From positions 1-51,152 of the forward strand of contig WRKT01000016.1 in assembly GCA_009777995.1 (NCBI GenBank): 51,152 nt of DNA. The letters run 5' to 3'. The notes under the pieces were generated by a model, which had not been told where the DNA came from, searched no databases, and saw only the letters and a program-made list of their open reading frames with translations. This stretch comes from Treponema sp. (GTDB taxonomy: Bacteria; Spirochaetota; Spirochaetia; Treponematales; Breznakiellaceae). The position numbers and the translations under genes are program-made. Below, in pieces: positions 1 through 50,071 of the stretch; position 1 is the stretch's first letter; every line of letters starts with the position of its first letter.

Positions 1-66
1 ATCTGCCCACAAATCGAAGCCATTGTTATCAAGCACCATCTACCTCCTATTAACTCTTAAGAGAAA

Positions 67-816
67 TTATTCAGAAGAAATAATGGGAAACTTTAATTTC
101 TTAAACAGGCGAGAACTACCGGGTGAAAATGTTGGATGCCCCCAGCCTACTAAAAACTTTGCTTTATTTTCAAAAGCCCACTTAATTGAGTATTGTGATA
201 AGGCTGTAGCATACCCCCTTTCCCGATATTCCGGTAATACATGAACAAAATCTAAGGCGGCGGCACCATTATCGTTAACAACTGCTGAGATAGCAACATG
301 TTTATCACTAACAAGCCCCAAAAAGCAATTAAACTTGCTTTCTTCTACAATATGATAATGGCTATCTGCATTAAATGACCCATAATCAAAACGGTTTATA
401 TCACACCATAATGTAAAATCTTTTTTTGTAGTAACCTGCCGAATAATTAAGTCTTGTGTCGTGTTTGAATAACACAGCATATCTTTCGCCATCATGATTC
501 CTAGCGCGAATTCTTTAAGTGGATAGAAAAGTATTTCTCCGTATATAGCCATACTTACTCTTTCCGAGCAAGCCATTGGCCATTCTGTATGAATATCCAA
601 ATCTTTAATTGTTTTAATTGTTTTATACAATTCAACGTCATCTAAATTTTCAAGTCGGATATTAAAGATTTCAGAAGGACCATTGGAACCTTCAACAGGA
701 AACATATATTCGTATATTCCATTATCCACAAGATTCATAAGCTTTGTGTCGGCAATGAGTCTGCGCCGAAAAATCAGCCATTCGTCAATGATCGTGAGTT
801 TTTCTTTTAGTGTCAT
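67..816 (-). CDS. GNAT family N-acetyltransferase
   Basis: 249 aa. The C-terminal acetyl-CoA-binding pattern (VHVLPEYRERGYATAL, motif A-like) is typical of the GNAT fold. Substrate unknown. Confidence 0.6.
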   Translation of the reverse strand: MTLKEKLTIIDEWLIFRRRLIADTKLMNLVDNGIYEYMFPVEGSNGPSEIFNIRLENLDDVELYKTIKTIKDLDIHTEWPMACSERVSMAIYGEILFYPLKEFALGIMMAKDMLCYSNTTQDLIIRQVTTKKDFTLWCDINRFDYGSFNADSHYHIVEESKFNCFLGLVSDKHVAISAVVNDNGAAALDFVHVLPEYRERGYATALSQYSIKWAFENKAKFLVGWGHPTFSPGSSRLFKKLKFPIISSE

Positions 817-919
817 GTAAATACTCCAATAATACCTTATACCATAAATTTTATCTCAAAAATGAACATTTTCGGACATTTTTATTGAAGTCTCATGAAA
901 GTTCCGGTTATAGGCAGTT

Positions 920-1840
920 TTACCCCGTTTTTATTTCACTTTTTTTCCACCATGTTGATGTTGCAAATGGGCGAAAACCTATGTTGTAATAAAATTGTTG
1001 AGATGAGTTGACTATAGCTCTTATGACACCAAATTCACTACAGCGTCTTATTCCTTCTAAGACAACCGATTTACCTAACCCCATTTTTCGATATGCCGGT
1101 TCAGTTGCCACAGGTTCAATTAAAACATTCTTTAACTTTTGGTCATACCAAATACCACAATGTGATACAAAATCTCCATTTGGTGCTACAATAAAGATTT
1201 TTAGTCTGAGATCTATATTTGGCCTATCCCATGCCTTTATATATCTTTTTTTTGAACACTTCTCCCAATAGAAAGAAAATGGGCCTTTCCCATTTATTTC
1301 ATTGTTAAATCCTTTCCACATCACCTGTCCGTATTTATATAGATCAAAGTCGTCTTCAAAGCTGGTTATTTTAAATCCCTCCGGCAGACAATAATTAATC
1401 TTTTCTTGATCTATTTGATATATTGAGGTTGACCATTTATCTTGTGTGGGATAAAAATTATTTCTTGCAGCTATACTTTGCATTTTTAGGTCATTGTCAA
1501 GAATTAAAACTCGTAATTCTCCATTTTTTACTAAATTATCTTTAGCATAAAGAAGCATTTCTTCTTTTAGTTTTTCATAGCCATTTAATGTCAAAATATA
1601 AATTGACCCTAGTGTAGTTTCATAGGCAGCTACTGCAACAAGTTTCTTGCCATCTTCCCACAACCCTATTTTTTCTAAGCTATCCGGATCAGCCCATTCA
1701 GCACCAAGACAAATAAACATCCAATCCCAAACACCAAAATGAAAATCATAAGAGTCAAGTTCGATTAAAAAATCCCGTACAATTTTATAATCATCGCCAT
1801 AGAGAGATGTGTTTCTGTATTGTCTAAATTTAACAGACAT
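920..1840 (-). CDS. GNAT family N-acetyltransferase (two-domain)
   Basis: 306 aa. GNAT motif A-like segment EPVATEPAYRKMGLGKSVVLEGIRRC near the C-terminus. Preceded by an AT-rich promoter-like region with two TATAAT boxes at about 1875-1905. Confidence 0.55.
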   Translation of the reverse strand: MSVKFRQYRNTSLYGDDYKIVRDFLIELDSYDFHFGVWDWMFICLGAEWADPDSLEKIGLWEDGKKLVAVAAYETTLGSIYILTLNGYEKLKEEMLLYAKDNLVKNGELRVLILDNDLKMQSIAARNNFYPTQDKWSTSIYQIDQEKINYCLPEGFKITSFEDDFDLYKYGQVMWKGFNNEINGKGPFSFYWEKCSKKRYIKAWDRPNIDLRLKIFIVAPNGDFVSHCGIWYDQKLKNVLIEPVATEPAYRKMGLGKSVVLEGIRRCSEFGVIRAIVNSSQQFYYNIGFRPFATSTWWKKSEIKTG

Positions 1841-2020
1841 AATAGCTCCTTTATAAAGTATAATCTTTTAATATAGTATAATGATTGGGAGGCCTATTGA
1901 CAAGATAACTAAAAAAGGAATAGGATACTCTATATTGTTAAATACTGTGAAGTAAAATCTAAGGTTTATAAAAATCAATTTCTCGCCCATTCAACAAATC
2001 TGATATACTCATGTAAGTCA

Positions 2021-2360
2021 GATATATATGGTGATGTGGTAATAAAAGCAGGTGTTCCCGAAGATAAAAGATTATTAACGGAAATTTCTACACTAAATTT
2101 TTATAACAATAAGTTTCACACATGTAAGCTGTACGAATATTCACTTGAAGATGGTTTTATACTGCTTAAAATATTATGATATAAAAAGGACCCATTACTG
2201 TAAATTAAATAATGATTATTCCGGAAAGTATCTTCTCCATGGAGACATGCATTATCGCAATATTCTATCGTATGGTGAAACATTTAAAGTCATTGACCCA
2301 CATGGGATTATTGGAGACCCGGTATTTGATATTACACGATTCCTTTCATATTATCTTTAA
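2021..2360 (+). pseudogene. Aminoglycoside/choline-kinase-type phosphotransferase (APH-like) remnant, frameshifted and truncated
   Basis: Frame A, about 2021-2169, reads DIYGDVVIKAGVPEDKRLLTEISTLNFYNNKFHTCKLYEYSLEDGFILLKIL and ends at TGA. ORF 2145-2360 in another frame contains the kinase catalytic loop LLHGDMHYRNIL and VIDPHGIIGDPVFDI (HGDxxxxN...D motif), then stops prematurely. There is no in-frame start and the total is about 130 aa against about 260-300 for intact APH. Coordinates are approximate. Confidence 0.5.
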
Positions 2361-2414
2361 TCCATTATTGACAAAAATACATTATTCTGATAATGTTGCA
2401 AGGAGGGATACGAG

Positions 2415-2861
2415 ATGAAGAAAAAACTGAGAATTGCAATAGTAGCTCACGACCAACGAAAAGCGGATATGGTTGACTGGACGCTTTATAACGCTGATAC
2501 ATTATCGAAACATTTCTTAATTTGCACCGGAACAACCGGAGGACTAATTAAATCAGCTTTTGAAGAAAAAGGAGTTAATGCAGAAATATTGTGTTTAAAT
2601 TCCGGCCCTATGGGTGGCGACGCTGAAATTGCAGCAATGGTTGTAAGGCATGAAATTAATCTGGCAATATTTTTAATCGATGACTTAAGTCCACAACCTC
2701 ATGAGGCCGATATTCTAATGTTACTTCGGCAATGCAGGATACATAATGTTCCCATCGCTTGTAACCGTTATAGTGCTGATTTAATGATTACAAGCACTTT
2801 ATGGGATAATTACGATTATGTACCTTTAATCCCAAAATACGAAAATTTCATTAGAAAGTAA
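2415..2861 (+). CDS. mgsA: Methylglyoxal synthase
   Basis: 148 aa. IAIVAHDQRK...LICTGTTGGLI...SGPMGGDAEIAAMVV...IFLIDDLSPQPHEADILMLLRQCRIHNVPIACN matches the MgsA signature (ALVAHD, ATGTTG, SGPxGGDQQ, PHDPDV). AGGAGG ribosome-binding site 8 nt upstream. Confidence 0.9.
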   Translation: MKKKLRIAIVAHDQRKADMVDWTLYNADTLSKHFLICTGTTGGLIKSAFEEKGVNAEILCLNSGPMGGDAEIAAMVVRHEINLAIFLIDDLSPQPHEADILMLLRQCRIHNVPIACNRYSADLMITSTLWDNYDYVPLIPKYENFIRK

Positions 2862-2940
2862 TTTCTATTATTTTTTTCTTGTTAATTTTGAGTTATTTTA
2901 AACTAATGTTTTTATGATCAAGTTCATTGTATGAGTTTTA

Positions 2941-3642
2941 TCATCTTGCTCCATGTTCCTCACATAATAGTGTGAATATATGTTCTATATTTTCAGCTGA
3001 ATTAAGCGGAATTGTTATAAAATGGCATTGTCGATAATCTATACCTTCAAATGTATAAGCCATAACAAAAGGACATTCATTGCATTGACAGCTCTTGCAA
3101 TCACTACACCTGAAATTATTTTTAATGTATTCCGGCATATTATTAATTATATTCATATACTTCGAACAATTTTGTAAAGGAATCCGAGCATAAATATTCC
3201 TGTTTTCCGGTGTTTTAGTTTCTACATCCATTCTTATGATAAAATCCTTCTTGCTTGGGTTATTGAATATTGCACTGTTACCACTAGAAACTTCGTCAAA
3301 TACATTGTATTCATTTTTGTACTCTATTGTGAAGGCAAATTTACCCTTCATTTTATGATAAAGTTGCAATGCAAACTCACCATAAGCAGTGCCTACGGTA
3401 TGAATAAAGTCTTGAAATGCAGTGTCCTGCACGGCGTATGGCATCAATATAGAATCAATAGAGCAATCAAATAACCGTGCTAAAAGCGGAAGCAATACGG
3501 TTTCCGGTAAAGTATGACCGTTTTCCCATTTACTGATTGCTTGAGCAGTTATACCTAACTTTTCAGCGAGTTCCTCCTGCGTTAGCCCATTTTGATTACG
3601 CAAACTAGCGATTTTTCTTCCTACGTTAATATTATCCAACAT
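2941..3642 (-). CDS. XRE-family HTH transcriptional regulator with Cys-rich C-terminal domain
   Basis: N-terminal HTH_XRE (GLTQEELAEKLGITAQAISKWENG). C-terminal roughly 160 aa domain carries the cluster CSDCKSCQCNEC plus a further Cys and His. I could not assign the domain. Confidence 0.7.
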   Translation of the reverse strand: MLDNINVGRKIASLRNQNGLTQEELAEKLGITAQAISKWENGHTLPETVLLPLLARLFDCSIDSILMPYAVQDTAFQDFIHTVGTAYGEFALQLYHKMKGKFAFTIEYKNEYNVFDEVSSGNSAIFNNPSKKDFIIRMDVETKTPENRNIYARIPLQNCSKYMNIINNMPEYIKNNFRCSDCKSCQCNECPFVMAYTFEGIDYRQCHFITIPLNSAENIEHIFTLLCEEHGAR

Positions 3643-3731
3643 AAAAGCCTCCTATGCTTCATAAAATTTCATTAATATTACCGGAAGCGAAAGTATATTG
3701 CCATGTATTACAAGTTGTTTTTTTCACAATA

Positions 3732-3752
3732 AACTTAACCTGTAGTTAAGTT
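3732..3752. promoter_or_regulatory. Inverted repeat AACTTAAC-ctgta-GTTAAGTT in the promoter region of the XRE regulator
   Basis: 8-bp perfect arms with a 5-nt spacer, read directly from the sequence. Lies in the 157-nt region upstream of the minus-strand XRE gene. The arms begin with the same AACTT as the second palindrome. Confidence 0.4.
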
Positions 3753-3789
3753 AAACATTAATCTCAATATTACGATATTGTTTATGTTT

Positions 3790-3813
3790 AACTTGTATAC
3801 TAGTATACAAGTT
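3790..3813. promoter_or_regulatory. Perfect 24-bp palindrome AACTTGTATACTAGTATACAAGTT overlapping the stop codon of the P-loop kinase gene
   Basis: Read directly from the sequence; 12+12 with no mismatch. It overlaps the last codons and stop of the minus-strand gene 3800-4348 and is not followed by a U-tract on either strand. Either an operator-like site or an atypical terminator. Confidence 0.45.
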
Positions 3814-4348
3814 CCTCCAGCCACTCGTAAACAGCACTCATTTCTGCCTCATAATCTTCGATAAATTCAAAAAGCTTGATATTATTCCTATTGCAGTCTG
3901 CCTTGCGCCTTAGGTTTTCACTGATATACTCTTCCATATCTTCGATAAAACCGCTTTCTCTATTCTCGATAATGCTCCTCTTCTCAAAAATAAGAGAAGA
4001 AAGGTTTTTCCTTATATAATTTTCCGAAAACGCCAGGGATAGCATAATTATTTTGCTTCTATATTCATCTTCCATATCTTCTATAGAAACAGGTAAATAA
4101 CAGCCTTCGATAATTAAATTCTGATTATTTTCAATATTTGTCTTAATAATTTCTCTTAATATGGGCCATAGCTTTTCTGTGATTAAGTCATCAGGCGATT
4201 CAGGTGTAAAGCCGCAGTTCTTATCACTTCGGTAAATACCCATTTTAAGATGATCGATTGAAAGGTAGGGTATCTTATATTTTTCAAGCAGCTTCTGCGC
4301 AAGTAATGTTTTCCCGGTACAGCTTGCCCCTGTTATGAGGATTATCAT
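3800..4348 (-). CDS. P-loop NTPase / small-molecule kinase (chloramphenicol-phosphotransferase-like, AAA_33-like)
   Basis: 182 aa. N-terminal Walker A MIILITGASCTGKTLLAQKL resembles CPT-type and zeta-like kinases. Overlaps the upstream GNAT stop by 4 nt, suggesting translational coupling. Confidence 0.55.
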   Translation of the reverse strand: MIILITGASCTGKTLLAQKLLEKYKIPYLSIDHLKMGIYRSDKNCGFTPESPDDLITEKLWPILREIIKTNIENNQNLIIEGCYLPVSIEDMEDEYRSKIIMLSLAFSENYIRKNLSSLIFEKRSIIENRESGFIEDMEEYISENLRRKADCNRNNIKLFEFIEDYEAEMSAVYEWLEELVY

Positions 4349-11359: not shown

Positions 11360-12397
11360 ATGGAAAGATCAAATTTAATTCATTATGAGGAAAAGGAAGC
11401 AAAAACAAGGAGCGGTATGGCCGCATTAATTCTAACGACCCTTGTGATACTCGCCGCCATTGCAGGAATAGTTTACGGCTCAATCCTACTTGCCCGCCTT
11501 GGCCCTGCCTCAGCAGCAGGCATTTTTCTTGTCGTTACAGGAAGCGTATACATTTCGGTTTTTAGCTGGTTCCCGTATATCGGTTTAAAAATAATTAAAC
11601 CAAACGAGGCGCTTGTGCTGACTCTTTTCGGGAAGTATTACGGAACGATTAAGAAAGAAGGGTTTTACTTTGTTAACCCCTTTGTTACCGCGGTTAACCC
11701 TGCCGCAGGAACCACCTCCACAAGCAGTGCCACCGTTACACCGCAGAAAGGCGCAACGACTGTGCCGGGAACAAGTGTCCAGGTTACAGGAATGCCTAGT
11801 TTTACCAGCAAAAAGATTTCACTTAAAGTTATTACGATGAACAACGACACACAGAAGGTAAATGATCAGCTAGGAAATCCCATCATCATAGGTATTGTTG
11901 TGGTGTGGAAGGTTATAAACCCGACAAAGGCAGTTTTTAACGTTGATAATTATAAAGAGTTCCTTTCAATTCAATGCGATTCAGCACTGCGAAACATTGT
12001 GCGGCTTTATCCCTACGATACTTATGGCGATGATAACGAGAAGACCCTCCGCGGAAGCAGTCAGGAAATTGCAATGAAGCTAAGAGACGAAATACAGTCA
12101 AAGGTTGAAATTGCAGGGCTTGATGTGGAAGAAGCACGTATCACCCATCTTGCCTATGCTCCTGAAATTGCGGCGGCCATGCTTCAGAGGCAGCAGGCTT
12201 CGGCAATTATCGATGCAAGGCAGATGATTGTAGATGGAGCTGTGGGCATGGTTGAAATGGCCTTGAAGAAATTGAGTGCAGGTAATATTGTAGATCTGGA
12301 CGAAGAGCGCAAGGCTGCAATGGTGAGTAATCTTCTTGTGGTGCTCTGCGGAAACAGGGATGCCCAACCGGTGGTGAATAGCGGTTCACTGTACTAA
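11360..12397 (+). CDS. SPFH/Band-7 (stomatin/prohibitin-like) membrane protein with low-complexity Thr/Ser insertion
   Basis: 345 aa. N-terminal TM helices, then an SPFH core (IIKPNEALVLTLFGKYYGTIKKEGFYFVNPF ... and a C-terminal coiled region AAAMLQRQQASAIIDARQ). The core is interrupted by the insertion AAGTTSTSSATVTPQKGATTVPGTSVQVTG. Confidence 0.75.
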   Translation: MERSNLIHYEEKEAKTRSGMAALILTTLVILAAIAGIVYGSILLARLGPASAAGIFLVVTGSVYISVFSWFPYIGLKIIKPNEALVLTLFGKYYGTIKKEGFYFVNPFVTAVNPAAGTTSTSSATVTPQKGATTVPGTSVQVTGMPSFTSKKISLKVITMNNDTQKVNDQLGNPIIIGIVVVWKVINPTKAVFNVDNYKEFLSIQCDSALRNIVRLYPYDTYGDDNEKTLRGSSQEIAMKLRDEIQSKVEIAGLDVEEARITHLAYAPEIAAAMLQRQQASAIIDARQMIVDGAVGMVEMALKKLSAGNIVDLDEERKAAMVSNLLVVLCGNRDAQPVVNSGSLY

Positions 12398-34022: not shown

Positions 34023-35027
34023 CTAATCCTTTTCCTTAAGTAATGCATCGTTATTGAGCACTTTGAACGAAGTTGCTTTGGGGGCCATCAAGTCGCGTAC
34101 CACGATGCCTTCTTTATCAAGGCCGCTTGGATATTTTCCCCTTGCCTTTTCAAGCAATTCTTCGAGATTATAGGCAAATTTTTCTCCCTGCTCTTCCAAT
34201 GGAACAATAGAAAGCCCAAGGTCTTTACAAACCTTGCAGGCCTCTTCATAGGGCAAATACTTATTTGAATCCCAATCCTTAACATCAAAAACAAACCATT
34301 CAATTTCGGCCATGCGCAGCTTATTTTTCTGGATCCCGGGGCCGCAAATTTCGCCTGTCAAGACCAGATTTTTTCCATAATTTGCCAATTTCTCTTTTAA
34401 ACCATATTTATAAACGGGAAGCCAATATAGAGCGCCTTCTTCGTCTTTAATTTCCTTATTTCTGCTGCAACAGCCTATTTCCCCATCAATATAATAAACT
34501 ATGCCTGACGTTCCATCCATTTTTGTCGTGATATAATAGGGTTTCCCGCTTAACTTTTCCAATAATTCCGGCTCCGACTGTATACGAATTTCATCGGAAG
34601 CAGGAATTCCGTGGGGGCGCTCCCCGATTATGGTCCCTCCGGGATTTGAGGTTTCAGGGATATACCATTTTTTTACATTGAGCTTTTCAGTAACATCTAC
34701 ACCCTCCCCCGCTCCCACCAGCTCAGGGAATTTTTCAAGGGGAAGCAATAGACCCTGAGAAAGCTGCCCTCGCATTTTAGCAGTACGGATTCTGAAGCCT
34801 TTGCCATTATCTTCATTATCCCGGTATGACGAATTGCGCAAAAATTCATACCTCTCATCTTCAGGCAAAAAGCTGTCTACTTCAAAGTAAACTCCAAGGT
34901 CGCCTTCCTTAAACTCACCCTTTTTTGCAACACATTGCCATCCAAGTACATGGGCAAGCTCCAGAAAATCAGAATCGGGAATGGTGCTTATCATCTTTAC
35001 TCTTTGTATCGTAACCAATGAACGCAT
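34023..35027 (-). CDS. ATP-dependent RNA ligase, Rnl5 family (DraRnl/NgrRnl-like)
   Basis: 334 aa. Adenylyltransferase motif I KMDGTS, with the Lys at about residue 170, is consistent with the reported position in NgrRnl/DraRnl. The N-terminal domain (VTIQRV...GWQCVAKKGEFKEGDLGVYFEVDSF...RIRTAKMRGQLSQGLLLPLEKFPEL) matches, as I recall it, the distinctive N-terminal module of that family. Confidence 0.7.
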   Translation of the reverse strand: MRSLVTIQRVKMISTIPDSDFLELAHVLGWQCVAKKGEFKEGDLGVYFEVDSFLPEDERYEFLRNSSYRDNEDNGKGFRIRTAKMRGQLSQGLLLPLEKFPELVGAGEGVDVTEKLNVKKWYIPETSNPGGTIIGERPHGIPASDEIRIQSEPELLEKLSGKPYYITTKMDGTSGIVYYIDGEIGCCSRNKEIKDEEGALYWLPVYKYGLKEKLANYGKNLVLTGEICGPGIQKNKLRMAEIEWFVFDVKDWDSNKYLPYEEACKVCKDLGLSIVPLEEQGEKFAYNLEELLEKARGKYPSGLDKEGIVVRDLMAPKATSFKVLNNDALLKEKD

Positions 35028-42770: not shown

Positions 42771-43754
42771 ATGGCTTTTTGTACAAACTGCGGGGCAGAT
42801 GCTAAAGATATTAATTTTTGCCCAAAATGCGGGACCCGGGTGGGCAATGCACCGGCGGCTGCACCGGAGCCGGCTGCTCAAGCGGCACCCCAACCACGGA
42901 CTGTAACAGTCGGGCAGGTAAGAAAATGCCCATCCTGCGGCTCTCCGATTGAATCCTTTCAATCCAGATGCGGTGCCTGTGGTCATGAGATCAACTCTGC
43001 AGGGGTATCGGAGGCCATAAAAGAGTTTACCACGCAGATCAATTCTCTTGATGAAAAGATTGCAAGAGAAAAGGTGGTGCCTGAGAAAAAATCTTCCTCT
43101 TCTTCATCCAAGATGCCCAAAATGTCCAAGAGAACCCAAAGGTCCCTTGTAAGAACAGGCACTGCAGGTGTTGCAGGTGCTGTAATTAGCTCTACCCTTA
43201 CAAGCTCGAGTAGTAATAAATCCGGATCAGGCTCGGGAAAATCTGTTGTAGGAGGCTTCCTGCTTATAGGCTTCTTTGTAGGCGTTATTGCGCTAATCGT
43301 AAAAATTACAAAGAATTTCAGGAACGCAATCGCACGCCCTGTAATGTCACCATCGGAGAAGGTGAAAAAAAGCTATATAGAAAATTTTGTTGTACCAAAC
43401 ACCAGAGAAGACATGCTGGAATTTGTTCTCCTTGCATCATCAAAAGCTGAAAGCGTTATAGAACTCGGGTCAGGCGAAACAATGGGTGAAATATCAAGCG
43501 CACATTATTGGGCAAAGGTATGGGAGAACAAGTGCAGAAAGGTCGAAGACAGGGCCCTTATAGCCTTGCAGGGCGATTCCCAGACCCTTAGCCAAATCAA
43601 AAGCTTCCATGACAGATCAAAGGAAAAATTCTTAACAATTACAAAGGCAAAAAAGAAGGGGCAAGTTAAATCCATCATCCTCTTCATATTTATGCTTACC
43701 TTAATCGTAATAGTAACTTTATTCATCTTATTTTTATTGCTCATGTTTATTTAA
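42771..43754 (+). CDS. Double zinc-ribbon membrane protein (YdjG/TcaA-like architecture)
   Basis: 327 aa. Two zinc ribbons (CTNCGADAKDINFCPKCG and CPSCGSPIESFQSRCGACGHE), an Ala/Pro-rich linker, a Ser-rich low-complexity stretch, a TM helix (GFLLIGFFVGVIALIV), a soluble region, and a C-terminal TM helix. Confidence 0.6.
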   Translation: MAFCTNCGADAKDINFCPKCGTRVGNAPAAAPEPAAQAAPQPRTVTVGQVRKCPSCGSPIESFQSRCGACGHEINSAGVSEAIKEFTTQINSLDEKIAREKVVPEKKSSSSSSKMPKMSKRTQRSLVRTGTAGVAGAVISSTLTSSSSNKSGSGSGKSVVGGFLLIGFFVGVIALIVKITKNFRNAIARPVMSPSEKVKKSYIENFVVPNTREDMLEFVLLASSKAESVIELGSGETMGEISSAHYWAKVWENKCRKVEDRALIALQGDSQTLSQIKSFHDRSKEKFLTITKAKKKGQVKSIILFIFMLTLIVIVTLFILFLLLMFI

Positions 43755-43772: not shown

Positions 43773-45260
43773 ATGCCAATTTTCGGAAACAAGGACAAAT
43801 CAAACAAGGGCGGCGCATTTGCCGACATGATTATGAGCCCCGAGCAGAATAGGGATTGGCTCATTTACAAATGGCGGCCCGAGGGGGAAGAAGCAGGAAG
43901 TACAAGACGTGAAAATTCCATCCGCTATTCTTCGGGTCTTACGGTTAGACAGGGGGAAGTCGCTGTTTTCCAGTATGCAGGGACAGTTCCCGGCGGAAGT
44001 CAGGATTATATCGAAGGTTACTATAGCGATTCCATCAAAACAGCAAACCTTCCGATCCTTGCAAACATAGTTGGTGCTGCTTACGGAGGAGGCACTCCAT
44101 TTGCTGCCCAAGTTTATTTCATCAACCTTGCAGGTGTAAATCAGGTGCAATTCGGTGTTCCATATTTTAACATGTTCGATCCACGTCTTCCCGATCATCC
44201 TGTCGAGGTAACTGTTCGGGGAACCATCACTTTTAAAATAGTCGATTATGTAAACTTTGTTAACTTACAGTCTCTTGTCGATTTTGACATGAGTAAATTC
44301 AGCAACCAGGTGAAAAATGCTATCATCGACAATGTAAGAAATACAATGATGGACATTATGGTGAAGCTCGGACGGCCCCTTGCTCAAATCGAAACCTATA
44401 GGCGCGAGATAAAGGCAATTCTGGAGCCGGATTTGATGGCAAACTTGCTGAATATCTATGGTGTTACAATAGTGGATCTAAACCTTGCAGCCATAGAAAT
44501 CAACAAAGAATGTGAAGGGTATCAGAAGATGGCCAAGCTTACCCAAGTACAGGCAGAAACTCAGATCGAACTTGGTGCCCAGGGAATGAGAGATCAGTAT
44601 GCAATAAATATGCAGACTAACGCTGCGATGGCTGCTGCACAGGTTGAAAACCAGGCGGAGGCAATGCGCATTAATCGTGAGGAAAACCAATACGCCCAGA
44701 GAATGCAGACAGACCTTGGCGGTATGGAACTGCACAGGCTCAGGGCGCAGACAGAAATGGTTAGTGCAACTGCAGCCGGAATGGGTGCTATGGGCGCAGG
44801 TGGTTCCGGAGGCGGCGGCCTTAACCCGGGCGCGATGGTCGCAGGGATGGCAATGGGCAGCACTGTCGGACAGAGTATGGCCGGCATGATGGGCAACGCG
44901 CTTAACAATATGAACCAACAGATGCCGGGTATGACACCTCCGGGCTTACCGCCGCAGGGAGCTCCGCCGCCGATACCGGGTGCAGCCGCACCCCCGCCCC
45001 CGGGAGCTCCGGTTGCAGCACCGCCAAGCTTAATGTTCAGCGTTTCAGTGGACGGGCAAGTATACGGCCCGTTCGACATGAATGCCCTTGTTCAAATGGC
45101 AGGCGCAGGCCAAATAAACGCCCAAAGCATGGTATGGAGAGAGGGGATGCCTGCTTGGCAACAGGCAGGAGCTGTACCTGAGCTTGCCGCACTATTCGCA
45201 GGTGCTTCGCCTCCGTCGCCTCCGCCGCCTCCTCTTCCCGGAGGAAATCATGGGCTCTAA
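43773..45260 (+). CDS. SPFH-domain protein of the Band_7_1 / YdjI (so-called virion-core-protein-like) type, with C-terminal polyproline tract and GYF-like (DUF4339) domain
   Basis: 495 aa. The N-terminal roughly 260 aa match the YdjI-type SPFH pattern (LIYKWRPEGEE...TVRQGEVAVFQYAG...YFINLAGVNQVQFGVPYFNMFDP...TVRGTITFKIVDYVNF). Then a Q/A/M-rich coiled region, a G/A/M-rich stretch, the polyproline PPGLPPQGAPPPIPGAAAPPPPGAPVAAPP, and a terminal domain FSVSVDGQVYGPFDMNALVQMAGAGQINAQSMVWREGMPAWQQAGAVPEL. Confidence 0.7.
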   Translation: MPIFGNKDKSNKGGAFADMIMSPEQNRDWLIYKWRPEGEEAGSTRRENSIRYSSGLTVRQGEVAVFQYAGTVPGGSQDYIEGYYSDSIKTANLPILANIVGAAYGGGTPFAAQVYFINLAGVNQVQFGVPYFNMFDPRLPDHPVEVTVRGTITFKIVDYVNFVNLQSLVDFDMSKFSNQVKNAIIDNVRNTMMDIMVKLGRPLAQIETYRREIKAILEPDLMANLLNIYGVTIVDLNLAAIEINKECEGYQKMAKLTQVQAETQIELGAQGMRDQYAINMQTNAAMAAAQVENQAEAMRINREENQYAQRMQTDLGGMELHRLRAQTEMVSATAAGMGAMGAGGSGGGGLNPGAMVAGMAMGSTVGQSMAGMMGNALNNMNQQMPGMTPPGLPPQGAPPPIPGAAAPPPPGAPVAAPPSLMFSVSVDGQVYGPFDMNALVQMAGAGQINAQSMVWREGMPAWQQAGAVPELAALFAGASPPSPPPPPLPGGNHGL

Positions 45261-45615
45261 TACAGGCTTTTCAATGGACAGACTTTTAGAATTTGGCATG
45301 AATGCCGCAGTCGCAGGTCAGGTTATGCGTAACATGAACCAAACAATGAGCGAAACAATGCAACCTTGGCCTGCTTCGATGAAGGGGCCCGGAACAACCA
45401 TGCCTCCATCACATCTATATTATGTTGCTCTTGACGGTAAACAGGCGGGGCCTTTTTCCGAGACCGAGATTATAAGGCTTGTGAACGAAAAAAGGATCAC
45501 AAAGGATACATTGGTTTGGCATCAGGGGATGCCTGCTTGGAAGCGAGCTGAAGACCTGCCCGAGATGCTTCGTATAATTGCACTTGCACCTCCGCCGCTT
45601 AATGTTATCGCATAA
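45250..45615 (+). CDS. Small stand-alone GYF-like (DUF4339) domain protein
   Basis: 121 aa from ATG 45250 (GGAGG ribosome-binding site; overlaps the upstream stop). YYVALDGKQAGPFSETEIIRLVNEKRITKDTLVWHQGMPAWKRAEDLPEM, then PPPL at the C-terminus. The track start at 45184 is an alternative start codon in the same frame. Confidence 0.6.
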   Translation: MGSNTGFSMDRLLEFGMNAAVAGQVMRNMNQTMSETMQPWPASMKGPGTTMPPSHLYYVALDGKQAGPFSETEIIRLVNEKRITKDTLVWHQGMPAWKRAEDLPEMLRIIALAPPPLNVIA

Positions 45616-45624
45616 GAAGATTCT

Positions 45625-47208
45625 ATGGCAAAGAGAAGAAATACCGGCGGTACGAGAGTGATGCGGCTTACACAACAACAGATGATGATGATGGGGATGG
45701 GCGCTATGATTCGACCTAATATCAGGAGCAGAGGCATACAAGCCAAGGCGCCTCAACAGGAGCAGAGGCTTTTCTATGCTGTGCTCGACGGCAGACAGGC
45801 AGGGCCTTTTTCCATCGCAGAAATGTCACAGCTAATAAGTCAAGGAAGTATCGCAAGAGAAAGCCTTGTGTGGAAACAGGGAATGTCTGCATGGCAGCAG
45901 GCCCATATTACCCCTGAGATTATGATGCTTTTCCCGCAATCTGCAGTACCACCGGTAGGATCATTGCCGCCGCCTCCTCGCCCTATGCCACCTCAATCCA
46001 TGCCTCCGCCGCCAAAGCAGACCTGGGAGCATTACTATCTTCCGATAGAAGGCATCCTGAACGAATGCCCGGTTAACGAAGAAGATCATGAAGAAAATAT
46101 TTCTGCTGAAACGCAGGAGCAAGCTGCAATGATTCTGGAGATCTTAGCTGATTTCAGAATTGAAGCAGAAGTCACAGGAATTATCCGCGGGCCTGTAGTT
46201 ACAATGTACGAGATACTCCCTGCAGCAGGGGTTAAACTGTCAAAGATATCCGAGCTTGAAAACAATATCGCCTTGCGTCTTGCAGCTAAATCCCTTAGGA
46301 TACTTTCTCCCATTCCGGGGAAAAATGCAGTTGGTATTGAAGTACCAAACAGGAAACGCGAACTTGTAAGTTTTAGGAAAACTATTGAAAATTGCTTTGA
46401 GGGATATACTGCACATTCTCAAAAAGCTTTACCGGTATTTTTAGGAAAAACAATTACGGGTGATATTTTATCAGCTGATCTTGCTACAATGCCGCATCTC
46501 CTTGTAGCAGGTACAACAGGCTCAGGCAAGTCGGTGTGCATCAATTCTATTATCCTTTCGCTTCTTTACCTGTTTACTCCTGATCAATGCAGAATGATAT
46601 TTATTGATCCGAAGATTGTCGAGTTAAAATTCTACGATGGGATTCCCCATCTGATTACCCCCGTTATACATGAGAGTGAAGGTGCTCTCAGGGCTCTTCG
46701 CTATTGTGTCAGCGAAATGGAAAGGCGTTATGATGTGCTTGGCAAGGCTTCTGCAAGAAACACCAAATCGTTTAATAAAAATGCCGAAGAGAAGGGCTCA
46801 CCTCTTTTACCCTATTGGGTTGTTATAATTGATGAGTATGCAGACCTTATGGCAGTTTCAGGCAAGGAAACCGAAGGGCTCATAGCTCGACTTGCAGCAA
46901 AAAGCCGTGCTGTCGGCATCCACTTAATTCTTGCAACTCAAAGGCCGTCAACGAATGTGATCACGGGAATCATAAAGGGCAATATACCTGCACGCATCGC
47001 CTTTATGGTTGCATCTAACAATGACAGCCGAATAATTCTCGACTCATCAGGTGCAGAAAAGCTTCTTGGCAAAGGTGACATGCTCTACTCAAGTAATGAT
47101 GCACCGTTTCCAATTCGTGCACAAGGCGCTTATGTCTGCGAAGATGAGGCAGAGAAAGCCGCGACACATCTCAGGAGTCTTGGAAGGCCTGAATATGTGG
47201 ATATATAA
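45625..47208 (+). CDS. FtsK/SpoIIIE-family motor ATPase (alpha+beta domains only) with N-terminal GYF-like domain and polyproline tract; no TM anchor, no gamma domain
   Basis: 527 aa. Residues about 49-100 FYAVLDGRQAGPFSIAEMSQLISQGSIARESLVWKQGMSAWQQAHITPEI; polyPro PPVGSLPPPPRPMPPQSMPPPPKQ. Residues about 130-527 align along their length with the E. coli FtsK motor: Walker A PHLLVAGTTGSGKSV, MIFIDPK, GIPHL, Walker B VVIIDEYADL, ATQRPS, IPARIAF, GKGDMLY. The protein ends GRPEYVDI, exactly where the FtsK gamma domain would begin. Confidence 0.8.
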   Translation: MAKRRNTGGTRVMRLTQQQMMMMGMGAMIRPNIRSRGIQAKAPQQEQRLFYAVLDGRQAGPFSIAEMSQLISQGSIARESLVWKQGMSAWQQAHITPEIMMLFPQSAVPPVGSLPPPPRPMPPQSMPPPPKQTWEHYYLPIEGILNECPVNEEDHEENISAETQEQAAMILEILADFRIEAEVTGIIRGPVVTMYEILPAAGVKLSKISELENNIALRLAAKSLRILSPIPGKNAVGIEVPNRKRELVSFRKTIENCFEGYTAHSQKALPVFLGKTITGDILSADLATMPHLLVAGTTGSGKSVCINSIILSLLYLFTPDQCRMIFIDPKIVELKFYDGIPHLITPVIHESEGALRALRYCVSEMERRYDVLGKASARNTKSFNKNAEEKGSPLLPYWVVIIDEYADLMAVSGKETEGLIARLAAKSRAVGIHLILATQRPSTNVITGIIKGNIPARIAFMVASNNDSRIILDSSGAEKLLGKGDMLYSSNDAPFPIRAQGAYVCEDEAEKAATHLRSLGRPEYVDI

Positions 47209-47224: not shown

Positions 47225-48046
47225 GTGAAGAGAGTGGTTGTTTTGTTGGTAGTTTGTTTACTCTTTGTGGGGTGTAACAGGAATCCTTTGACCGGTCAGA
47301 GGACTATAGCTCTTGTTAGTAACAACACACTTTTTCCTATGGCGTTTCAGCAATATGAAGATTTTTTGAATGAAAACACATTGGTAACAGGAACTGCAGA
47401 AGCAGAAATGGTAAGACGGGTGGGAGACAGAATCAGGCTGGCAGCGGAAAGCCTCCTGGCTGCCGAAGGTCATGAAAATTATCTGGATGATTATCAATGG
47501 GAGTATCATTTAGTTCAGAGTAATGAAGTTAATGCATGGGTTATGCCGGGTGGTAAGATTGTTATCTATACCGGCATACTCCCGCTGGCAGGCAACGAAG
47601 ACGGCCTTGCGGTGATCATGGGGCACGAAGTTGCCCATGCGATACTTAACCATGGGCAGCAAAGAATGAGTGCAAGCCTGCTTCGAGAAATTGGCAGGTT
47701 GGGTATTTCCATTGGCGCTTCACTCCTGGATCTTCCTTCCGACACTCAAAGATTGATCCTGGCTGCCTACGGTGTTGGCTCACACTTGGGTGCTATTCTG
47801 CCATTCAGCAGAAGCCATGAAAACGAAGCGGATTACTATGGTCTAATCCTAATGACAATCGCCGGTTATGACCAGAATGCGGCGGTCAGCTTCTGGGAAA
47901 GAATGGCAGCTTTGGGAGGAGGAGGTCTTGAATGGCTAAGCACCCATCCATCAAGTGAAAACAGAGCCGGTCAGCTTCAGGGTTGGATTCCCGAAACAAG
48001 AGAAATAGCTGACCAAATTAAGCTATCAATATCTTATGTACAATAA
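47225..48046 (+). CDS. M48-family (YcaL/LoiP/BepA-like) zinc metalloprotease lipoprotein
   Basis: 273 aa. Lipobox LLFVGC. NAWVMPGGKIVIYTGIL, HExxH as AVIMGHEVAHAILNH, and the third ligand region SRSHENEADYYG. This matches the periplasmic M48B pattern. GTG start. Confidence 0.8.
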   Translation: MKRVVVLLVVCLLFVGCNRNPLTGQRTIALVSNNTLFPMAFQQYEDFLNENTLVTGTAEAEMVRRVGDRIRLAAESLLAAEGHENYLDDYQWEYHLVQSNEVNAWVMPGGKIVIYTGILPLAGNEDGLAVIMGHEVAHAILNHGQQRMSASLLREIGRLGISIGASLLDLPSDTQRLILAAYGVGSHLGAILPFSRSHENEADYYGLILMTIAGYDQNAAVSFWERMAALGGGGLEWLSTHPSSENRAGQLQGWIPETREIADQIKLSISYVQ

Positions 48047-48088: not shown

Positions 48089-48508
48089 ATGAAAACCATG
48101 ATCAAAGTATTCGGAGTTATAGTATTTATCGCTGTAATTAGCTTATCAACGGCAACTGCCCAATCTGCACAAAACATTGGCAGAATAACCATTACCGAGA
48201 TACCGGCCCGGTATGACGGTAAATTTATAATGCTAACTGTAGACACAGGTGGTTCCGGTGCCAGAAATGTGGCATGGGGTACACGGACAATAAACGGCAC
48301 TTCGACTACCATCAACTTGCTTGACTGGGTTACTGACCAACCGACAACCATAAATGCAGGTAATTATGGGCTTAATATAATCCTTGCCGCCAACATGTCT
48401 GCCATTGCAAATGATCAGGAAGAGTTTATAGGCATTATAATGGCCAGAGCCCTTTCCGGAGAAACAGTTTCAGTAGAATGGGGTGAGTTCATGGATATGA
48501 CAAACTAA
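48089..48508 (+). CDS. Small secreted protein, unknown family (paralog A)
   Basis: 139 aa. SPase-I signal peptide (…STATAQS/AQ). Conserved core ITEIPARYDGKFIMLTVDTGGSGARNVAWGTRTI...LLDWVTDQPTTI..GNYGLNIILAANM. Confidence 0.5.
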   Translation: MKTMIKVFGVIVFIAVISLSTATAQSAQNIGRITITEIPARYDGKFIMLTVDTGGSGARNVAWGTRTINGTSTTINLLDWVTDQPTTINAGNYGLNIILAANMSAIANDQEEFIGIIMARALSGETVSVEWGEFMDMTN

Positions 48509-49645: not shown

Positions 49646-50071
49646 ATGAAAAGCATGATCAAAGCATTCGGAATAGTTTTACTAATTACAGTAATCGGTA
49701 TATCAATGGGAGCCTGTGCATCATCTGCAAGTCCAAGGGTAACTTATAATAGCGTAACCATTACAGATATACCGTCAGCGTTTGAAGGTAAGTTTGCAAT
49801 GCTAACCTTGGACACAGGCGGTTCAGGAGCCAGAACTCTTGCCTGGGGCACTCGGACCATAACCGGATCTTCAGCTACATTCAACTTGCTGGATTGGGTT
49901 ACAGATCGACCTACAACCATTAGAGAAGGCAATTATGGAGTTAACTTAATCATTGCGGCTAACATGACTGCAATTACCAATGATGAAGAGGAATATGTAG
50001 GCATTATCATGAGCAGAGCCTTTTTTGGAGAAACAGTTTTAATAGAGTTTGGCGAGTTGATGTCGTTCTAG
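49646..50071 (+). CDS. Small lipoprotein, paralog B of 48089-48508
   Basis: 141 aa. About 60-65% identical to paralog A across the mature region, but the signal peptide ends in the lipobox ISMGAC, so it is predicted to be lipidated while paralog A is not. Confidence 0.5.
   Translation: MKSMIKAFGIVLLITVIGISMGACASSASPRVTYNSVTITDIPSAFEGKFAMLTLDTGGSGARTLAWGTRTITGSSATFNLLDWVTDRPTTIREGNYGVNLIIAANMTAITNDEEEYVGIIMSRAFFGETVLIEFGELMSF

Follow-up and report, generated by a model that had tools for sequence, protein, structure and literature searches.

Introduction

FtsK motors are normally placed in the cell by a membrane domain of their own and steered by their gamma domain. The SftA protein of Bacillus subtilis is a non-essential FtsK paralogue without transmembrane (TM) helices, which is placed by its N-terminal region and by partner proteins (PMC9320952). 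In the same bacterium, the TM proteins YdjG and YdjH recruit YdjI (SamI), an SPFH protein that is itself soluble, to the membrane (PMC8581546); YdjG consists of two Zn ribbons and a TM segment, and YdjI of a Band-7 domain with a C-terminal Zn ribbon (PMC11237479). The bacterial GYF_2 domain of GltJ binds a proline-rich sequence with micromolar affinity (PMC11135422), and Balaji & Aravind noted the combination of SPFH and GYF domains in 2007 and proposed that GYF domains bind flanking polyproline (PMC2034487). Here we analyse an FtsK-like protein encoded on the forward strand of Treponema sp. contig WRKT01000016.1 (assembly GCA_009777995.1), whose entire 51,152 nucleotides (nt) are referred to below as the window. 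In this protein, a GYF_2 domain and a short polyproline tract precede an FtsK motor that has neither a membrane anchor nor a gamma domain, and its gene closes an operon that also encodes an SPFH protein. A limited full-text search of the literature met no description of a GYF-FtsK fusion or of an SPFH-linked FtsK.

Taken together, the observations described below incline us to regard the protein as a paralogous double-stranded DNA (dsDNA) translocase that is blind to the FtsK-orienting polar sequences (KOPS) and that would be held in trans on an SPFH membrane scaffold by contacts between GYF domains and polyproline.

Domain architecture of the FtsK-like protein

The open reading frame (ORF) runs from an ATG start to a TAA stop and encodes 527 amino acids (aa). 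An identical 527-aa protein is deposited at NCBI under the generic label 'FtsK/SpoIIIE domain-containing protein [Treponema sp.]'. The protein and its segments are located as follows:

45625..47208 (+), GYF_2-polyproline-FtsK(alpha-beta) protein, NCBI MCL2007973.1
45625..45762 (+), N-terminal segment (aa 1-46), basic and then Met/Gln-rich, predicted to be disordered (predicted local distance difference test, pLDDT, of 30-35 in AlphaFold2)
45763..45939 (+), GYF_2 domain (aa 47-105), from Pfam, AlphaFold2 and a phmmer match to 7Z3C
45940..46020 (+), polyproline tract (aa 106-132; PPVGSLPPPPRPMPPQSMPPPP), a disordered linker by composition and AlphaFold2
46021..46359 (+), conserved TWExYxLPIxGILNE motif and FtsK alpha domain (aa 133-245), from Pfam FtsK_alpha and alignments
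46360..47205 (+), FtsK beta (RecA-like ATPase) domain (aa 246-527), ending at the beta/linker boundary

Pfam assigned GYF_2 (PF14237) to aa 51-98 (E 3e-15; 56 bits against a gathering score of 25.8), FtsK_alpha (PF17854) to aa 153-242 (E 1.6e-28) and FtsK_SpoIIIE (PF01580) to aa 262-442 (E 1.8e-54), and the composition is rich in proline at about aa 104-134. An AlphaFold2 model built from the family alignment gave the GYF region (aa 47-105) a beta-beta-alpha-beta fold with pLDDT 86-90, flanked by disorder at aa 1-46 and 106-130 and followed by folded alpha and beta domains. When the protein was compared with solved structures by phmmer, the GYF domain of GltJ determined by nuclear magnetic resonance (7Z3C) matched at E 9e-7. 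The best match to aa 109-526 was the motor of Pseudomonas aeruginosa FtsK (PaFtsK; 2IUT/2IUU; E 1e-107, about 47% identity), and the Walker A block, MPHLLVAGTTGSGKSV, is identical in the two proteins. An earlier note, made from the letters of this DNA alone, had proposed an FtsK alpha-beta motor with an identical Walker A region behind a GYF-like domain and a proline-rich tract; both halves of that proposal agree with the Pfam assignments, and the motor also with the structural alignment.

The alignment to PaFtsK covers linker, alpha and beta and stops one residue short of the C-terminus of the query, at chain residue 473 of 574, so that what is missing is the linker and gamma. The FtsK_gamma model (PF09397) found no match in the protein, and the NCBIfam FtsK equivalog (NF007615/PRK10263) matched the motor part only, with 382 bits against a cut-off of 1566. 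Moreover, no gamma- or anchor-coding sequence was found elsewhere in the window by tblastn with a full-length Treponema FtsK (P0033), whose sole match, at 46033-47202, was the motor itself. A TM helix was likewise not detected, either in the FtsK-like protein or in the small GYF_2 protein encoded immediately upstream, their Kyte-Doolittle maxima (1.44 and 1.17) lying below the threshold of a mean of 1.6 over a 19-residue window. The anchorless state of the protein, the lack of a TM segment in the upstream gene product and the stop at the end of the beta domain, all claimed in the earlier note, are therefore confirmed. The sequencing error that it had considered, fusing the ORF to gamma-coding sequence downstream, finds no counterpart in any frame of the window, where the gene of an M48 peptidase begins 16 nt after the stop. 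The stop codon is genuine, as 31 homologous clusters share the same C-terminal end.

Gamma is absent from all 31 clade members and present in nearly all of the canonical FtsK matches listed. Since the gamma winged helix has been lost, KOPS reading and XerD activation would not be possible, and it is reasonable to suppose that the motor would translocate without KOPS guidance.

Conservation of the family and of the motor residues

A search covering 5.8 billion proteins returned about 31 clusters that share this architecture and are 57-78% identical; every one of them comes from metagenomes or metagenome-assembled genomes (MAGs) labelled Treponema or Spirochaetia. Canonical spirochaete FtsKs came next, with 53-61% identity over the motor only (57-61% for canonical Treponema FtsK), and nearly all of those among the matches listed carry PF09397. 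The clade members all end in LG(K/R)PEY(V/I)x(I/L/M), within ±2-10 aa of one another. At the other end, most begin with MA(K/R)(K/R), and the arrangement MA(K/R)(K/R)...QQMM is a motif of the family. Furthermore, all 12 orthologues from one metagenome are intact; their nonsynonymous divergence (dN) is about 0.10-0.15 for the motor, and for the GYF domain it lies at 0.12-0.25. The synonymous divergence (dS) among these 12 is saturated (above 1), so that a dN of about 0.1 can be set against it only qualitatively; the pattern indicates strong purifying selection on the gene.

The roles of individual residues were taken from a cryo-electron microscopy study of FtsK bound to DNA (PMC7321959) and mapped onto the FtsK-like protein:

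46510-46533 (+), Walker A, G296-S303
46831-46836 (+), Walker B, D403/E404
46906-46908 (+), arginine finger R428, equivalent to PaFtsK R620
(+), DNA loops: loop II R440/S442/G448/K451 and loop I R469

Walker A K302/S303, Walker B D403/E404, R428, the four loop II residues and R469 are invariant in 32 of 32 clade sequences, and five of the six DNA-gripping pore-loop residues of PaFtsK (R632, S634, G640, K643, K657 and R661) are invariant in the clade. Because the catalytic and DNA-contact residues are conserved, the motor looks like a competent dsDNA translocase, and the protein may be expected to translocate DNA.

A dispensable paralogue of the canonical FtsK

A neighbour-joining tree was built from 369 columns of the motor region in 120 sequences and rooted on PaFtsK. 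In it, the FtsK-like protein groups with chromosomal FtsK, and the gamma-less proteins form a single long-branched clade that is sister to 87 gamma-bearing spirochaete FtsKs. Contigs of the window's own lineage share the gene order histidine kinase (HK), LuxR, Zn-ribbon protein, SPFH protein, small GYF_2 protein, FtsK, M48 peptidase and PPC (pre-peptidase C-terminal) domain protein. Within this syntenic frame, the FtsK gene is absent from one locus, L028, in which only a 134-bp spacer (L028:3884-4018) separates the small GYF gene from the M48 gene. In a second locus (L034:281-445), it is reduced by a clean deletion to a 54-aa in-frame stub made of its first 26 and last 28 codons, MAKRRNTTGIRNTRLTQQQMMMMGMG joined directly to QGAYVCENEAERAAIHLRSLGKPEYVSI and the stop. 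Since the gene has been lost in these close relatives, it is unlikely to be the only FtsK. These findings argue strongly that the FtsK-like gene would be a dispensable paralogue rather than the principal translocase or a degraded canonical FtsK. The earlier note's description of an FtsK paralogue is thus upheld, both by the monophyly of the clade beside the gamma-bearing spirochaete FtsKs and by the dispensability seen in L028 and L034.

One protein, P0008 (L008:92-2272, GCA_031275865.1), was considered as a gamma-bearing member of the clade and rejected, being a canonical FtsK (83% identity to P0033) whose sequence contains an internal tandem duplication. About 280 aa of its motor, from GIEVPNKKR to MSRAVGI, are duplicated; lying at a contig end, this duplication is probably an assembly artefact.

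The FtsK-like gene belongs to an SPFH/GYF operon

The FtsK-like gene is the last of a four-gene operon whose successive intergenic distances are 18, -11 and 9 nt. The genes upstream of it, and the one that follows, are:

42771..43754 (+), double zinc-ribbon membrane protein, 327 aa (Pfam DZR/Zn_Ribbon_1, hydropathy)
43773..45260 (+), soluble SPFH (Band_7_1) protein, 495 aa, NCBI MCL2007971.1 (Pfam)
45250..45615 (+), small GYF_2 protein, 121 aa from the ATG at 45250 (Pfam GYF_2, E 3e-18)
47225..48046 (+), M48 peptidase lipoprotein, 16 nt downstream of the FtsK-like gene (Pfam Peptidase_M48, lipobox, hydropathy)

In the 327-aa protein, two Zn ribbons at the N-terminus are followed by a first TM helix (aa 159-177), a helical domain on the cytoplasmic side and a second TM helix at the C-terminal end (aa 302-320). 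Its gene is split in the loci L001, L005 and L007 into a Zn-ribbon-TM gene and a gene for a TM protein of about 140 aa, and it is fused in L041. The SPFH protein has no TM helix. Band_7_1 at aa 45-248 (E 2e-21) is followed by a coiled, low-complexity Gly-Met-rich region, a polyproline stretch, GYF_2 at aa 424-471 (E 5e-17) and a second polyproline tail. Finally, the small GYF_2 protein, whose gene shares its first 11 nt with the end of the SPFH gene, including the stop, carries an N-terminal DRLLEFGM motif, a Met-rich segment, the GYF_2 domain and an APPP tail. GYF_2 is thus present in three consecutive proteins of the operon. The M48 gene is syntenic only in the window's own lineage, other lineages having different downstream genes, and the peptidase is probably a neighbour rather than a member of the module. 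Over 40.5-48.6 kb, the numbers of promoter and terminator sites found by scanning did not exceed those in shuffled sequence.

A conserved Gly/Met-rich motif, G(M/L)(N/D)PxxMxxGMxxGxxxGxQMAGxM, occurs at about aa 330-385 of the SPFH protein (window 44760-44930) and, in L001, L005 and L007, at the N-terminal end of GYF proteins. It precedes GYF domains of type A and is glycine-zipper-like; its hydropathy of 1.52 falls slightly short of the TM threshold, and the segment could interact with the membrane or associate with itself.

The association of FtsK with these genes extends beyond the window. The SPFH gene is conserved beside the FtsK gene in L005-L007 and L010-L029, and the same gene set adjoins FtsK in L001 and L005-L007, which are unrelated contigs with differing outer neighbours. 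The set consists of the Zn-ribbon TM protein, the TM protein of about 140 aa (fused to it in the window), the SPFH-GYF protein, one or two GYF proteins and, usually, a four-TM protein; at L004, a contig-end locus, the small GYF gene alone is seen beside FtsK. The four-TM protein (about 115-117 aa, no Pfam match) is part of the core module whether or not FtsK is present. A search of the window did not find this 'p117' gene, which is also missing from most of the window's closest relatives. It was located at:

L010:7363-7704, four-TM protein gene
L017:828-1169, four-TM protein gene
L020:7357-7698, four-TM protein gene
L005:9642-9995, four-TM protein gene
L041:7363-7707, four-TM protein gene

The module also occurs on its own. 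A metagenome scan with the small GYF protein as seed retrieved 70 loci; the FtsK motor follows in 20 of these, and at least nine have none in the flanks that were sequenced. In L041, an FtsK-less locus on an 83-kb contig, the Zn-ribbon/TM, SPFH-GYF, GYF and four-TM genes are followed by unrelated genes on the opposite strand. Additionally, SPFH-GYF homologues were found in MAGs labelled Bacteroidaceae and Opitutaceae. Because the core module occurs without FtsK, the motor is best seen as an add-on to a pre-existing scaffold, and the distribution points to an SPFH/GYF membrane module that is older and more widespread than its link with FtsK, the motor having joined it as an accessory in some spirochaete lineages.

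GYF domains, polyproline tracts and a model for recruitment

Each soluble protein of the operon carries both a GYF_2 domain and a polyproline tract, and a proline-rich tract is found in 111 of 113 SPFH-GYF homologues and in 22 of 29 FtsK N-termini. This co-occurrence suggests that the GYF_2 domains of the operon may bind proline-rich sequences. The GYF domain of the window's FtsK-like protein is closest to the small-protein type; in one lineage, FtsK has two GYF domains, which cluster with the C-terminal GYF domain of the SPFH proteins from the same modules. Within the clade, the N-terminal adaptor varies between one GYF domain, two GYF domains, two Zn ribbons and polyproline alone. P0030 and P0032 have no GYF domain and present a conserved helix (LLSIxxVFAEQLKxARR) together with a polyproline region of roughly 60-90 aa; they would thus appear to carry the ligand without the reader. 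Across the clade, the alpha-beta motor is constant and the N-terminus is an exchangeable address label for a neighbouring membrane-associated partner.

The likely partner of the motor, as judged from gene order and domain content, would be the set of upstream proteins, namely the Zn-ribbon TM, SPFH-GYF_2 and small GYF_2 proteins. The earlier note had argued that such a motor would need a partner for its localisation, and the operon supports this. It had also examined the upstream genes for a split N-terminus and correctly discounted one, the small GYF_2 protein having no TM segment; it overlooked, however, the likely role of these genes as partners, which their conserved operon with FtsK brings out.

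We propose that the paralogue arose from a spirochaete ftsK and kept the alpha-beta hexameric ATPase motor, while the anchor of four or five TM helices and the linker would have been replaced by a disordered Met-rich peptide, a GYF_2 domain and a polyproline tract. Through multivalent GYF-polyproline contacts, the FtsK hexamer would then dock in trans on an SPFH assembly lying under the membrane, and the tethered motor would pump or clear duplex DNA without sequence direction and without XerD activation. Its cellular purpose would most likely be to keep DNA off division or envelope-stress sites organised by the SPFH complex; DNA transfer and defence are other candidate roles.

Several points weigh against this proposal. 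The tethering of FtsK to SPFH rests on gene linkage and domain logic, and the tree is a simple neighbour-joining tree of top matches with a single outgroup as root. The deletions in L028 and L034 were read from metagenome contigs, so that an origin in faulty assembly is conceivable. A canonical ftsK of the same genome was not found: the contig scan gave one irrelevant Desulfovibrionaceae FtsK, and none of 17 NCBI accessions of canonical Treponema/Spirochaetaceae FtsKs was adjacent to MCL2007971/MCL2007973. In the motor itself, the loop I residue K657 of PaFtsK is N or M in the clade, a position that is also variable in canonical spirochaete FtsK. Lastly, the clade member P0024 (L080:5728-9383), which lies at the same chromosomal position (after HK-HK-LuxR) and has two N-terminal Zn ribbons and no GYF domain, is without SPFH/GYF genes and adjoins a TMEM43-like (PF07787) membrane protein and a sigma-70 factor. 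Since its context lacks SPFH, the motor can presumably work with other partners.

Alternative explanations

The protein could instead be an ATPase of DNA transport or conflict, that is, a membrane-docked pump that imports, exports or expels DNA in a conjugation-like, Ced-like, anti-phage or anti-plasmid manner, with the membrane proteins of the operon as its conduit or sensor. FtsK-type motors do drive trans-membrane DNA transfer (SpoIIIE, TraB, TcpA) and FtsK domains are known in defence proteins; the SspH and mad8 models of PADLOC match the motor at 1e-58 and 7e-31, toxin-antitoxin or transposase genes lie near several relatives, and a presence/absence polymorphism of this kind is typical of accessory systems. 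However, no PADLOC model convincingly matched a partner protein, no relaxase, integrase or pilus gene lies nearby, no member of the family was found on IMG/VR viral contigs, and the locus keeps its place in the chromosome, with stable synteny from HK-LuxR to M48-PPC across many relatives. The small four-TM protein that stands beside FtsK in most lineages would suit a conduit, yet it and the other membrane proteins belong to the core module that exists without FtsK, and the window has no gene for it. We consider this explanation unlikely.

Two more specific assignments were tried and rejected. A known defence system was set aside as the PADLOC models SspH, mad8 and HerA match the motor only and no partner protein, and a phage origin as the FtsK-like motors of IMG/VR are at most 49% identical and all without the GYF region. 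Such motors, 36-49% identical over aa ~130-527, are encoded on many predicted viral or prophage contigs (L082-L161).

An equally doubtful explanation is that of a soluble motor independent of SPFH, whose GYF domain binds some other proline-rich protein, for instance a divisome component, or whose basic, Met-rich N-terminal peptide binds the membrane in the manner of SftA. P0024, with no SPFH neighbours, would fit such a motor, as would a hydrophobic moment of about 0.5 in the N-termini of some relatives (MFAQQMMNMMNxF). Against this, the N-terminus of the window protein is only weakly amphipathic (0.34) and predicted to be disordered, the GYF/polyproline operon linkage is kept even across lineages in which the identity of the small GYF protein to that of the window falls as low as 33%, and the GYF domains of FtsK are near-copies of those of its partners. 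For the window protein, an SftA-like amphipathic-helix anchor was considered and is a weak candidate, given the low moment and the disorder predicted by AlphaFold2.

A bolder extension, which we hold to be quite unlikely, starts from the operon rather than the motor. The SPFH-GYF operon might be a docking platform wired by GYF and polyproline, with exchangeable clients, that has captured a sequence-blind FtsK and so formed a flotillin-like, microdomain-coupled DNA pump outside chromosome dimer resolution. If this were true, its possible jobs would include the expulsion or import of DNA at the membrane, in defence or gene transfer, and the clearing of envelope-damage sites.

More improbable still is that the protein is the sole FtsK of its genome, a canonical division translocase in which anchor and gamma were genuinely lost and which reaches the septum by way of its GYF domain. 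The window contains no second FtsK and none could be tied to the same MAG, and the motor is close in sequence to that of canonical Treponema FtsK, as given above. On the other side, the clade stands beside canonical spirochaete FtsK as its sister group instead of arising within it, and its branches are longer; the syntenic L028 and L034 have lost the gene wholly or in large part, and nine of the ten informative loci of the core-module group with 42-53% identity are without it; and the FtsK equivalog score of the protein falls far below the cut-off.

That the ORF is a pseudogene left by truncation, or that errors of sequencing or assembly made it out of a normal ftsK, is scarcely credible: although the sequence comes from a MAG and the MAG-derived P0008 displays an obvious tandem-duplication artefact, the same start and stop recur in 31 clusters from many samples, selection on the gene is strongly purifying, the catalytic residues are invariant, and the M48 gene follows so closely upon the stop, with no gamma-coding sequence in any frame.

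Other features of the window

Elsewhere in the window, several features were observed:

34023-35027 (-), RNA ligase with a PHA02142-type OB-fold N-terminal domain (PF21189 and PF09414), a phage-like architecture
11360-12397 (+), a second, different SPFH protein (classic Band_7, PF01145)
48089-48508 and 49646-50071 (+), two paralogous secreted proteins or lipoproteins of about 140 aa without a Pfam match

The RNA ligase gene lies between an ABC transporter operon and histidine-kinase genes. The two paralogues of about 140 aa share the motif TITxIPxxxxGKFxMLTxDTGGSGARxxAWGTRTIxGxS and flank the PPC domain protein; the trio is syntenic in relatives such as L034. The first 4000 nt of the window (1-4000) have a G+C content of about 0.33-0.34, as against 0.40-0.51 in the rest of the contig, and encode GNAT acetyltransferases and an HTH_3 regulator.

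Comparison with known systems

The reading that we favour, a KOPS-blind paralogue held by an SPFH scaffold, would make this clade an example of a natural DNA pump localised wholly in trans and working with no sequence guidance. It would also provide a testable client for two poorly understood components, the GYF_2 domains and the SPFH scaffolds of the YdjI type. Its reach is limited, the clade being dispensable and so far confined to uncultured Treponema/Spirochaetia. We regard the protein as a new architectural and contextual variant of a well-known motor family, for which the proposed mechanism of recruitment is plausible.

Canonical FtsK (E. coli and P. aeruginosa; PRK10263; 2IUT, 2IUU, 6T8B) aligns with the protein end to end over alpha and beta, with an identical Walker A and with the Walker B, the arginine finger and the DNA-gripping residues of loop II conserved. 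It differs in possessing a division domain of four or five TM helices and a gamma domain that forms the KOPS/XerD interface, neither of which is present in the FtsK-like protein, and where canonical FtsK has its anchor and linker, the FtsK-like protein has a GYF_2 domain and a short polyproline tract.

EssC/EccC, TraB and TcpA resemble the protein in having FtsK-like P-loop domains without the FtsK gamma, although these are weak matches: the scores reach 117 against a family cut-off of 778 for EssC, 97 against 509 for EccCa and 45 against 800 for TraB. Furthermore, those proteins contain multiple ATPase domains or TM and winged helix-turn-helix modules of their own, whereas the FtsK-like protein has a single ATPase and the alpha domain specific to FtsK.

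The closest functional analogue is SftA, which is likewise dispensable and free of TM helices, and whose own recruitment runs through its N-terminus and partners. SftA, however, keeps its gamma domain and relies on an amphipathic helix and on SepF/FtsA, whereas the FtsK-like protein has no gamma, bears GYF_2 and polyproline and is linked to an SPFH operon.

For the operon, the nearest likeness is the YdjG-YdjH-YdjI (SamGHI) set of the PspA system, compared here through published descriptions of its proteins (PMC11237479, PMC8581546). Both combine a double-Zn-ribbon TM protein with a soluble SPFH protein, and in both the SPFH protein ends in a low-complexity tail and a small C-terminal adaptor domain. 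That adaptor is a Zn ribbon in YdjI and GYF_2 in the operon, to which further GYF_2 proteins and the FtsK motor have been added; among the SPFH homologues, P0185 (49% identical) combines Band_7_1 with a Zn ribbon. Pfam found neither a TPM-domain (TPM_phosphatase) YdjH nor a PspA domain among the operon proteins, and the operon is therefore a relative of the YdjG/YdjI system and not the same system.

The GYF domain of GltJ and its partner AglZ in Myxococcus, finally, offer a parallel for the proposed contacts, as a GYF_2 adaptor there binds a proline-rich sequence in assembling a machine beneath the membrane (PMC11135422). That machine serves gliding motility, and GltJ is itself a TM protein with no ATPase fused to its GYF domain, whereas in the Treponema protein the GYF_2 domain is joined to an FtsK motor.

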